A DNA stretch of 64,000 nucleotides from Octopus vulgaris (taxonomy: Eukaryota). Below are positions 7,562 through 42,170 of this stretch, in pieces. Positions within the stretch are counted from its first letter, which is position 1; each line of letters starts with the position of its first letter. The translations under genes and the position numbers were made by a program. The notes below the pieces were generated by a model, which had not been told where the DNA came from, ran no database searches, and saw only the letters and a program-made list of their open reading frames with translations. The stretch covers positions 26,660,001 through 26,724,000 of the forward strand of contig OX597831.1 of NCBI GenBank assembly GCA_951406725.2. Direction: 5' to 3'.

Positions 7562-7977
7562 TATATATATATATAAATTCAAATTACGATGAACGTAAAC
7601 AAACTAAAACGAAGTTTGCTTTAGAAGCGTTGAGATGTCTTAGAAAGTTACAGAAGTGATTTTAAATTCTCAAACGCAGGATGATGCTGATAATATAGCC
7701 TGAACAGGATAAACTACCCCTATTTTGCAGAAAAAAAGTGTTCGTGGCCGGCTCTGAGACCGGCTATATATATAACAGGCTTCTCTCAATTTCCGTCTGC
7801 CAAATCCACTCACAAGGCTGTGGTTGGCCCAAGGCTACAGTTGAAGACACTTGCTCAAGGTGCCACACGGTGGGACTGAACCTGGAACCATGTGGTTGGG
7901 AAGCACCTGCCTGTCAACCTATCTATCTATCTATCTACATCTCCCTATGTGCATGCATTCGTACTTGCCTACATACC

Positions 7978-8555
7978 TATTTCTTTACTACCCACAAGGG
8001 GCTAAACACAGAGGGGACAAACAAGGGGATTAAGTCGATTATATCGACCCCAGTGCGTAACTGGTACTTAATTTATCGACCTCGAAAGGATGAAAGGCAA
8101 AGTCGACCTCGGCTGAATTTGAACTCAGAACGTAACGGTAGACTTGCCTACATACCTATTTCTTTACTACCCACAAGGGGCTAAACATAGAGGGGACAAA
8201 CAAGGACAGACAAAGGGATTAAGTTGATTACATGGACCCCAGTGCGCAACTGGTACTTAATTTATCGACCTCGAAAGGATGAAAGGCAAAGTCGACCTCG
8301 GCGGAATTTGAACTCAGAACGTAACGGTAGACTTGCCTACATACCTACTAACCCATGTACCAACCTATCAGTTTATACCTATTTCTTTATTACCCACAAG
8401 GGGCTAAACATAGAGGAGACAAACATGGACAGACATAGGTATTAAGTCGATTATATCGACCCCAGTGCTTAACTGGTACTTTATTTATCGACCCCGAAAG
8501 GATGAAAGGCAAAGTCGACCTCGGCGGAATTTGAACTCAGAACGTAACGGTAGAC
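7978..8555 (-). mobile_element. Array of three 5'-truncated SINE family B copies
   Basis: Copies start (tail) at 7978, 8157, 8380; all end at AACGGTAGAC; separated by duplicated flank ACTTGCCTACATACC. Confidence 0.9.
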
Positions 8556-9396
8556 TTGCCTACGTACCTACCGACCCATGTACCAACCTATCTGTTTATA
8601 CCTGTTTGTACAACATCTTGTGTTATTTTAAGTATTGGTAATTACAAAAACAAGCAAACGATGCACAATGCAGACATCTCCCATAAACATTCACTGAAAT
8701 TATCGGATGGAACTATATTAGGAAGCCACGAGATGCCATTCTGAGAATGTACCCAATGCTCTGTAGTAGACAAGAGTGGGCACACAACAACAAGAACAAG
8801 AACAAGAGCAAGAACAGCAGCCGACTCTTCTCAACATTATCGGATTCACTCAAGCGTAAACTGTTACACATATGGGCGGCTGGAAATTAATGTCAGTCAA
8901 CAGCAGACGTTCACTGATGGTCAGTGAATGTTCCAGAATAAATATTATGATGTGGACATGTCAACAATATCTGGAAGCTTAATGAAGCAGAAAGGAAATG
9001 TTGACAAAAAAAACATTGGATGAGGTGGGAGGAGAGATTTGGTGGGTGGGGGTGAGGGGAATGAGTGACGACGGCTGTGGTGGTGATGGTGGTGGTGAGG
9101 GGGGTGATGGTGGTGGTGAGGGGTTGATGGTGGTGGTGGTGGTGGTGACTACAGTTGTGAGGAAAATGATGACCAAACATTGGATTGGGGGTAGGGGTAG
9201 TATCTTTTGGAAAAAAAAAAACATACAAGGAATATAAAATATACAATATTGCCTTTTTTTTTGTTTTATTTTTCATGTTTGAATAAATCTGAGCAAATAT
9301 TGAAAATTTAATCAATGTTGCACAAATGATCAAATGTGTTGAATAATCATTGAACAAATGTAAAAGAAAACTATGTTTCTAGAAATGTGTGTGTGT

Positions 9397-9790
9397 GGCA
9401 GGAGTGGCTGTGTGGTAAGTAGCTTGCTTACCAACCACATGGTTCTGGGTTCAGTCTCACTGCATGGCACCTTGGGCAAGTGTCTTCTACTATAGCCTCG
9501 GGCCGACCAAAGCCTTGGGGGTGGATTTGGTAGATGGAAACTGAAAGAAGCCCGTCGTATATATGTATATATGTGTGTGTGTGTGTGTGTGTATGTGTCT
9601 GTGTCTGTCCCCCAATATCGCTTGACATCCGATGCTGGTGTGTTTACATCCCCATAACTTAGAAGTTCATCAAAAGAGGCCAATAGAATAAGTACTAGGC
9701 TTACAAAGAATAAACCCTGGGATCGATTTCTTCGACTAATGGTGGTGCTCCAGCATGGCCACAGTCAAATGACTGTAACAAGTAAAAGAG
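9397..9790 (+). mobile_element. SINE family A (tRNA-derived head, CORE-like ACCTTGGGCAAGT, internal microsatellite, CR1-type tail)
   Basis: A-box-like GTGGCTGTGTGG, B-box-like GGGTTCAGTC; over 15 related copies, e.g. 12008-12420, 15440-15780, 19007-19376, 30863-31255, 31795-32210, 51078-51503, 51960-52368, 60293-60455. Confidence 0.9.
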
Positions 9791-9935
9791 TATATATATA
9801 TATATATATATATATATATATATATATATATATATATATATATATATATATATATATGATATATCTATATATTTTCTATTCTAGGCACAAGGCCTGAAAT
9901 TTTGGAAGAGGAGCCAGTCGAATATATATATATAA

Positions 9936-40065: not shown

Positions 40066-40574
40066 GTGACATTTCCCGCATGAATGCAAGGTATTCAAAA
40101 CATGAAGTTCAGGGTAATGATATAAAAATGAATAACAAACAACGAACCAAAATTTCAATAAAAATCTCTCCAACCTTTTATTACGAAGGGCAGCCGGAAG
40201 GAGAGTACCTTACAAGTTAAATGTACCCTAGTACTTAAGTTTTATCGCTTTGAATTTTTGTTTAACACCGCGTGTTGCCTAGGGGACAGAAAATACTCGA
40301 GAGGGCAAACTAGCTGTAGGATCACTAAGTGTGACAGGCAGACTTATGACGTATAATATAGGGAGCGAGATCATCTTTTCCATGGGAAGGTTATTCCAAG
40401 TTGTAGACCCGGTTGGGGAGCCGGAGAGTCATGGCGATATAATCTACGATCAACAGCCATTTGTAAACATTATGATCTTAAGTATTATTTTGATTTCGGG
40501 AATTCATATTATGTATGGCTAAGATGTTGTATAAGTCACATTTTCAATGTCTTATGTATATCTATGATCTTGTT

Positions 40575-40905
40575 GCGCCACAGGTTTTGCGTATTAACGT
40601 AGTTCGTGTAAAAAGCGTTACTCGTTAACATAATTTATGCACAGATACAGCTTATTAACATAACTCATGCACAGATACTACTTATTTGATACATAATTGA
40701 TGCACAGGTTTTGCTTATTAATGTAATTCATGCACATGTGTAGTTTATAATTCCTGTACATGTATTGCATATTATCATAATATATGCTCAAACATATGTT
40801 TTTAACGTAATTCTAGCACTGTAATTGCATATTAGCATTATTCATACACAGGTATTGCTTATTAACATAATAAATGCACAGGTGTTGCTTGTTTATTTAA
40901 TTGTG
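40575..40905 (+). repeat. Degenerate ~30-bp minisatellite
   Basis: Recurring TGCACAGGTATTGCTTATTAACATAATTCA-like unit, about ten copies. Confidence 0.75.
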
Positions 40906-41419
40906 CTATATTTATACTTATTTAACATTTTTGGATATGTTTATATATGTTGTATATATTGTACACTCTTGTGTGTGAGTGTATATATATATATATATAT
41001 ATATATATATATATTCTAGTATGTGAGTATGTATATGTGTGTGTGTGTGTGTGTAGAGGGGTGTGTGAGAGAAAGATTGAGATAGATAGATAAATACATA
41101 AATACATACATATATACATACATAATACATAATACATACATACATGCTTGCATACATACATACATAATACATACATAAATGCATACATACATACATACAT
41201 ACATATATACATACATACATGCATGCATGCATACATTAAGCCTCCTTCATTAAAACATTTTCTTAATAATTCATTTACTTCAAATGAAATTAGAGATTTT
41301 GTGTTAATTTAAAAAAAGGAAAATGTCCTGATATTGAATGTATTACTGGTAGAAGTGCTCAAAATGAAAGGGGTGCTGGACGCTAGGTCTCCTACACAAT
41401 CTTATATTTAATCATTGGT

Positions 41420-42170
41420 AAAATGGTACAGTTCCTCAAGATTGAAGATGACACGTTCCCGAAAGTGTTGCTCAAGGGAAAAGACGGTAAAGCGATTTTC
41501 ATCAATTCTGGTGGTATTTCTTTCCCCAGGGATTTCGGTAAAATACTGAATAAAATTTTTCTTGACAAACTCCTGCCACACGTCGAATTATTCCTACTTT
41601 ATAAGTCCCATATTTCGTTATTGCCCACAAGGGGTTAAACATAGAGGGGACAAACAAGGACAGACAAAGTGATTAAGTCGATTACATCGACCCCAGTGCG
41701 TAACTGGTACTTAATTTATCGACCCCAAAAGGATGAAAGGCAAAGTCGACCTTGGCGGAATTTGAACTCAGAACGTAACGGCAGACGAAATATCTATTTC
41801 TTTACTACCCACAAGGGGCTAGACATAGAGTGGACAAACAAGGACAGACAAAGGGATTAGGTTGATTATATCGACCCCAGTGCGTAACTGGTACTTAATT
41901 TATCGACCCCGAAAGGATGAAATGCAAAGTCGACCTGTGCGGAATTTGAACTCAGAACGTAGCGGCAGTCGAAATGCCGCTAAGCATTTCGCCCGGCGTG
42001 CTAACGTTTCTGCCAGTTCGCCGCCTTTTATAAGTCCCAGTCAAGTTTTTTGCATTGGATGAGGATCCGACGACAGTATATTTTCATTTCGTTATTTACT
42101 AGAAAAACGCATCGAGCAGAGACTCCACGTTTCCCAGATCACGTCCTCCTACCATGAAGAGGGGAAATAT
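41420..42170 (+). pseudogene. Possible Helitron PIF1-helicase relic interrupted by SINE B
   Basis: FPKVLLKGKDGK....GGISFPRDFGKI....LDKLLP resembles the F...LL.IGDG...G.I.LP..F..I...LIDKVFP region of Helitron helicases; recalled similarity only. Confidence 0.35.
41611..42025 (-). mobile_element. SINE B head plus two bodies with TSD
   Basis: 13-bp TSD TTTATAAGTCCCA at 41598-41610 and 42027-42039. Confidence 0.9.

Follow-up and report, generated by a model that had tools for sequence, protein, structure and literature searches.

Target choice by lineage and nesting within its own family of a short interspersed element that prefers GGTA in Octopus vulgaris

A short interspersed nuclear element (SINE) of Octopus vulgaris, here called SINE B, inserts preferentially in front of GGTA and into members of its own family, and its target preference (GGTA, TATA or AGAA) belongs to the individual SINE lineages. 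We studied it in a window of 64,000 nucleotides (assembly GCA_951406725.2, contig OX597831.1, positions 26,660,001 to 26,724,000; labelled C18 among our contigs) and by searching the 2.8-Gb genome. Positions given without a contig refer to the window. A sequence-only reading of the window had proposed that one semi-specific Tx1 enzyme mobilizes the SINE, that the element carries GGTA landing pads on both of its strands and that serial insertion builds multimers of one head and several bodies. The preference for GGTA and the insertion into the own family could be substantiated. However, neither a single enzyme specificity nor an equal role of both strands agrees with our data, and serial insertion accounts for the dimers and for one stack but not for the long arrays. 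Pairing of a read-through RNA end at the nick appears more likely to direct insertion than one fixed Tx1 specificity.

The SINE B consensus, built from 160 monomers, is 234 nt long. It shares positions 1-169, which make up the head and the middle, with an older sister family, SINE A, but differs from it in the tail; divergence amounts to 14% in SINE A and 5.5% in SINE B. In line with its classification as a SINE, the element is short, non-coding and present in high copy number with target-site duplications (TSDs) of variable length, mostly 11-19 bp. Motifs resembling the A and B boxes lie at about positions 14-24 and 76-88, as judged by eye against the box consensus, while one SINE copy tested yielded no match in Rfam and ARAGORN predicted no tRNA gene in the window. 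The consensus contains GGTA in sense orientation at positions 51 and 220 and in antisense orientation at position 139. It contains no run of four T (T4) that could act as a terminator.

Genome-wide, 83,868 exact SINE B tails were found, 67,719 of T-type and 16,149 of C-type. GGTA directly follows 41,548 of the T-type but only 2,080 of the C-type tails; other T-type tails continue with a base other than G (15,384), with G and then a different base (5,552) or with GG and then a base other than T (1,991). The T-type tails followed by GGTA include 25,940 canonical junctions with the head of another SINE, 4,373 cases of GGTAV and 5,060 of GGTATV. When the canonical junctions are set aside, 41,779 T-type tails remain outside the self site, and 9,433 of these (22.6%) precede GGTAV or GGTATV. 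Compared to a background of 0.237% (4,745 in 2,000,000 positions) this is an enrichment of about 95-fold, so that the check proposed together with the GGTA preference, enrichment at non-nested insertions, speaks for it. Within the window, GGTA stands directly after 10 of 17 SINE B tails (6761, 7977, 8156, 8379, 13282, 22259, 25513, 25697, 25872 and 36161), and every coordinate that had been quoted for such tails proved correct. Two further tails form head junctions with one mismatch (41794, GATATTTCG; 34899, AGTATTTCG). The three exceptions named by the sequence-only reading (41610, 57262 and 62314) are real, but its list lacked 13161 and 35987 and it overlooked the tail type that they share: the tails without GGTA at 13161, 35987, 41610, 57263 and 62315 are all five GGGCAATA (CA/C-type) tails of the window.

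For the assignment of TSDs the first four bases after the tail were ignored and bases +5 to +12 served as anchor. An anchored TSD was obtained for 121 of 276 headed terminal tails, the other 155 being dropped because they had no anchored TSD or a low-complexity anchor; the control gave 2 false TSDs in 218. GGTA belongs to the target and not to the tail, since the upstream TSD copy carries it too in 52 of the 60 anchored cases with downstream GGTA and the motif therefore existed in the target DNA before insertion. Differences between the two TSD copies are concentrated at +1 (6/60, compared to 3/180 at +2 to +4; p=0.009), as if the RNA had sometimes supplied a G.

Retroelements have been regarded as target-specific when a single type of repeat makes up more than 20% of their flanks, as stated in a study of crocodilian SINEs (PMC4494074). 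In the octopus, 38% of the T-type tails, namely the 25,940 canonical junctions, abut position 51 in the head of the own family, although this share is inflated by local duplication. In the opposite orientation only 459 junctions were counted with a strict pattern, even though antisense sites are commoner than intact sense sites (289 vs 106 in 1 Mb of SINE-centred loci). By a rough extrapolation, about 0.06% of the antisense sites have been used, about 0.07% of generic GGTA sites and several percent of the sense sites. The sense site alone is a hot spot and the antisense pad is used like any other GGTA, contrary to the proposed landing pads on both strands. The safe harbour suggested by the sequence-only reading is likewise not supported, as the majority of the T-type tails (41,779 of 67,719) lie elsewhere than at the canonical self site. 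We relate the hot spot to the long homology that exists at the sense site. There is a second self site at head position 18, where the tail is followed by AGAAACGTTAG; 1,675 exact cases occur genome-wide, mostly with CA tails, among them the junction at 13161. Tails of SINE A are likewise joined to position 18 (loci L019, L095 and L106). Among the first 100 head junctions listed, 6 read GGTATTTTG, in which a CpG change creates a T4 terminator for RNA polymerase III just past the tail; judging from the sequence, such junctions would yield RNAs ending in GGUAUUU. With the sequence GAAATA-GG-TATTTC, the junction forms a perfect inverted repeat. Folding does not support a structure based on this complementarity of tail and head, as the first unit of a dimer together with the junction folded no better than shuffled sequences (z 0.20).

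Target choice differs among lineages of SINE B even when the end of the tail is the same. With the last 25 nt identical, copies with C176 precede TATA in 1,948 and GGTAV in 115 cases, whereas the corresponding numbers for G176 copies are 1,938 and 1,108 (odds ratio 9.7). Further differences come from 624 tails that were chosen by their downstream motif, so that only the contrasts between classes are meaningful. T198 was present in 43 of 77 TG-tailed copies of the GGTA class but in 2 of 32 of the TATA class, and the young ACA-TA lineage had no TATA target among 86. Copies with a CA tail were found at TATA, at AGA/AGAA and at the second self site in head position 18. The TG-tailed classes are of similar age (2.3% for GGTA and 2.9% for TATA), and overall the target class follows positions 46/51, 176, 198 and 222/224 in copies whose ages overlap, which is at odds with one semi-specific Tx1 enzyme. 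Each class motif matches the sequence that would lie 3' of the tail of a master copy residing in a self site or in a microsatellite. Because the motif corresponds to the flank of the master and the SINE has no internal terminator, this suggests that read-through RNA pairs with the nicked strand. Tentatively, and at somewhat less than even odds, target choice could be a heritable trait encoded in RNA, with the flank of the master being transcribed, guiding the priming and being recreated at each insertion. Were this the case, lineages could lock onto GGTA, TATA or AGAA without any change of enzyme, and lineages inserting into their own head would rebuild the guide at every nesting and seed satellites via homology-joined insertion.

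Multimers were analyzed in 183 parsed multi-unit clusters, of which 88 have a clean structure of a head followed by n units; 95 truncated or irregular clusters were dropped and L215 was left out as a segmental duplicate of L223. The repeat unit measures 184 bp, the longest array seen has 11 units and 30 of the 88 clean arrays terminate with a SINE A tail. For the commonest A subtype, the last unit is 5.9% diverged and the first 3.1% (70/1196 vs 37/1194 non-CpG positions); with the last unit being twice as diverged, SINE B evidently entered an older host. Dimers behave as nested insertions of unrelated units with a homology-joined 5' end. Rare variants of the host recur in the first unit with a 5' polarity, in 19 of 75 cases at positions 51-67 (5.1 expected), in 8/65, 11/95, 5/85 and 13/163 in the successive bins and in 0/82 at positions 170-234. 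In single first units, host variants originating downstream of the nick extend to about position 115-145, and the lineage's own 5' marker G74 is reduced in ACA-TA first units (3/9 compared to 26/32 monomers; p=0.01). From the variant polarity and the loss of G74 we infer that the cDNA may have annealed to the resident copy and been completed on it.

It is very improbable that all arrays including the dimers result from DNA-level tandem duplication of one copy. Dimer units are as distant from each other as random pairs (9.9% vs 9.4%), tails of the two families are mixed in the 30 arrays that end in SINE A, and five clusters (L045, L050, L082, L106 and L278) have kept both heads with a TSD-sized spacer, most clusters having one head. 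Although this refutes duplication as the origin of the dimers, the explanation does apply to the long arrays: adjacent internal units in arrays of at least four are 1.5-2.8% apart compared to 7-13% for shuffled pairs. The nearest neighbor of a unit was located in the same array in 0/74 cases for dimers, 16/44 for trimers and 51/62 for arrays of at least four units. This clustering by locus had been named as a check of the idea of serial insertion, which stands for the dimers and for a stack at 7963-8602, whereas in arrays of at least four units most units have their closest relative within the array, the outcome that had been named as refuting it. Arrays of at least four units are likely local DNA duplications, and their internal units, 0-5% apart, show the homogeneity of satellites made of tandem partial SINEs (SINE-derived satellites, sSats). 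Alternatively, most multimers could be whole copies of pre-formed dimeric masters, with few original nestings. A single TSD encloses whole arrays, and heads with the B-specific G46/C51 occur on 5 of 26 SINE A-ended dimers and trimers, as one would expect of such copies. However, first and second units are uncorrelated across loci (Mantel r -0.02, p 0.64, n=37; r 0.06, p 0.16, n=22), a test of low power if masters are many; some contribution is likely. Also, the last units are older and the GGTA at unique sites is left unexplained. As the origin of most multimers we consider such masters improbable.

Our preferred explanation, to which we assign a probability of about 0.58, combines a loose Tx1-type nick, pairing by read-through RNA and a homology-joined 5' end with subsequent expansion at the DNA level. 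A borrowed, weakly specific Tx1-type enzyme would nick the DNA. Given the lack of T4 in the consensus, SINE transcripts probably extend into the flank, and an RNA running on past the tail end AAGAAAUA into GGUAUUU... would pair with the nicked strand and thereby select the site. A master in front of GGTA would thus produce daughters in front of GGTA, with target choice inherited through the flank. If the target is a resident SINE, pairing could extend far beyond 4 nt and the cDNA could be joined by annealing with the resident copy rather than by end-joining, resulting in one head without a second and in a first unit whose 5' part was copied from the host. Unequal crossover or slippage may then have expanded the dimer to a head with several bodies. 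Targeting by protein alone would mean that read-through had no role and that the different lineages were carried by two or three Tx1 families whose endonucleases differ in specificity (GGTA/SINE head, TATA and AGAA). This seems unlikely to us. It would explain a base bias at -1 to -3 upstream of the nick, there are LINE (long interspersed nuclear element) families with (ATT)n and with (TATC)n at their ends, and the specificity of Tx1 elements is ascribed mainly to their endonuclease (PMC4494074). On the other hand, it does not predict that the target class tracks the SINE positions listed above, a similar upstream bias is present at non-GGTA insertions (G at -1 in 3/43), and four tail patterns, which may miss other tails, revealed no junction of a LINE family with position 51 but just one non-SINE element with 3 copies.

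Several observations count against the read-through explanation. No extra base is found at 54 of the 60 junctions, and some of the remaining 6 may be later mutations. Upstream of the nick, G never occurs at -1 (0/52; 10.7 expected) and A is overrepresented at -2 (26; 12.8 expected). This bias points to a weakly specific endonuclease, and as it lies beyond the reach of read-through the enzyme must contribute to target choice. Nearly all loci of our sample come from contig C1 and were picked by their downstream motif. Any rare variant is common to both dimer units in 29/59 cases, partly by CpG chance, and most share none. Of 12 arrays headed by G46/C51, 10 continue with a second unit whose first base is G; this is compatible both with re-copying of multimers and with replacement of the head. 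Finally, other Tx1-like families of the genome have their own microsatellite targets, and a separate enzyme for each SINE lineage is a live alternative.

The SINE tail resembles 3' ends of Tx1-type LINEs of the same genome, as far as sequence alignment can tell. The window contains a 5'-truncated LINE at 53290..55280 (plus strand), which we take to belong to the Tx1 clade, with RVT_1 and zf-RVT domains and a 3' end similar to the SINE tail; a lookup in the ESM Atlas returned only a generic reverse-transcriptase label. Its family is young and forms head-to-tail arrays with a period of about 5.87 kb, open frames of 1,145 aa and copies linked by short (ATT)n (G000:C4:93804585-93834475, C50:5788-59149, C47 and C1:202330148-202348364; L347-L355). 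As the family ends in (ATT)n at the 25 of 30 loci where its tail was found, this LINE is unlikely to be the carrier of the SINE and is more probably a relative of the carrier. The SINE tail is matched more closely by a 3' untranslated region fragment of another LINE-like family at 26645..26950 (minus strand), whose relatives terminate in (TATC)n or (TCTG)n. Local scores of the SINE tail with four LINE-like 3' ends ranged from 44 to 62, none being an exact partner. The survey of LINE targets covered one family and chance hits. Of its four tail patterns, the GTGGCY type gave 36 matches, with SINE contexts at 8/8 loci opened, and CCCTV gave 283, of which the 100 listed are all SINE mutants. CAAATAAA gave 8 matches. 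The long-spacer pattern gave 640, and more than half of the 100 listed show a stutter of GAAATA, which recurs between the tail and the junction with the head. The non-SINE element at position 51 is ORF (open reading frame)-like and has an AATAAA-bearing tail (L215/L223, G000:C1:216388797). At L312, two ORF1-like elements stand in tandem on the minus strand (at about 934 and 2515) and have 3' ends that closely match the SINE tail.

Each of the ingredients has precedents, the closest being the crocodilian SINEU/Tx1-Mar pair (PMC4494074) and the SINE-derived satellites of squamates (PMC10702118). SINEU is also a Tx1-carried SINE that prefers another repeat, with sites on both strands, and its tandem copies were ascribed to sequential insertion. 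However, its target is an unrelated Mariner and its tandem copies sandwich a TSD, whereas the octopus SINE targets its own family with a seamless joint, one head and a preference that depends on lineage. For SART1Bm and R1Bm, it was proposed that target-like sequence located at the RNA 3' end or beyond it anneals with the nicked strand and so determines the start of reverse transcription (PMC7265360). There, annealing refines a site fixed by the specific endonuclease of an autonomous LINE, while in the octopus it would decide between sites for a SINE and be passed on via the flank. The 'anneal' 5' junctions of R2 likewise arise by cDNA annealing to a homologous target and are seamless without duplication of the shared sequence (PMC11331408). 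In contrast to R2, which anneals to upstream ribosomal DNA, octopus first units also contain variants of the host that lie downstream of the nick, and this implies annealing to the resident copy ahead. As in the octopus arrays, the tandem units of the squamate satellites are shorter than the SINE, a single terminal unit is extended and homogeneity grows with array length (PMC10702118). No seeding mechanism is shown for them in the accessible text, whereas octopus units meet at a target of retrotransposition and the dimers they form are heterogeneous. Neither 'nested' nor 'target site' has a match in the main text of a recent octopus repeat annotation (PMC13282606), and the full combination was not found for any SINE in the literature searched, which comprised few subscription papers and neither Repbase entries nor supplements. 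If our explanation is correct, a non-autonomous element carries targeting information in its flanking read-through RNA, and a LINE enzyme is thereby biased by RNA guidance in a natural system. It would also outline a concrete path from interspersed repeat to satellite, with nested insertion seeding a dimer that is enlarged by DNA-level duplication.

The individual loci of the window illustrate these junctions. At 7963..8602 (minus strand), three 5'-truncated units are stacked at GGTA sites within unique DNA in the order X-Y-[U1]-X-Y-[U2]-Y-[U3]-Y, where Y is the 15-bp site and X comprises 34 bp. The tail is of the young ACA/TA type in U1 and of the TG type in U2 and U3, and a single 5' joint is common to all three. 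The units are separated by 15- and 49-bp repeats of the unique flank, each beginning with GGTA, and the junction of tail and Y has 2 matches genome-wide, both at this stack. Later insertions likely duplicated 15 and 49 bp of flank and, with it, a portion of the resident unit. The idea that 7977, 8156 and 8379 represent a separate 'B2' head variant was rejected, as the sequence in question is unique local DNA. On the plus strand, the SINE B at 6541..6799 (head, body and tail) joins position 51 of a truncated second unit at 6761, and the CA-tailed copy at 12935..13282 joins head position 18 of its host copy at 13161. A full SINE B is inserted in antisense at host position 139 (13266..13529, minus strand), and the TSDs quoted for this locus and for those at 41598 and 62070 are real. 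Here, the TSD copies at 13266-13282 and 13513-13529 are identical over 17 bp. At 22133..22490 (minus strand), a minus-strand SINE B (22260-22490) abuts the antisense site of its host, a plus-strand copy (22133-22259) whose 3' half is missing; no TSD was found at 22259. The array at 25297..26010 (plus strand) consists of a head, three B units and a last unit (positions 51-169) with a SINE A tail, neighboring units differing by 4, 5 and 9%. On the minus strand, the B unit at 34783..35132 joins at 34899 position 52 of a second unit that ends at 167 with a non-B tail, and the dimers at 35988..36393 and 41598..42039 each combine a TG-tailed with a CA-tailed unit within one 13-bp TSD, with 1 mismatch in the former and with copies at 41598-41610 and 42027-42039 in the latter. 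The two plus-strand monomers have CA tails: the copy at 57031..57262 has no GGTA after its tail, and the one at 62068..62331 has a TATA-class target and a TSD of 17-20 bp (about 62068-62087 and 62312-62331).

Tandem full-length SINEs were seen at L222 (G000:C1:7184211-7187241) and L277 (C1:14451000-14460999), with spacers of 33 and 7 bp and periods of 264 and 235 bp, respectively; their nearly identical copies point to local amplification. A different, tRNA-like SINE is present at 43085-43589 of the window in two tandem copies of 249 bp. Two near-identical frames of 145 codons (863-1300 and 2824-3261), about 1.96 kb apart, indicate a local direct duplication. A 150-aa frame at 47538-47987 (minus strand) contains C2H2 zinc fingers and is possibly the end of another retroelement.

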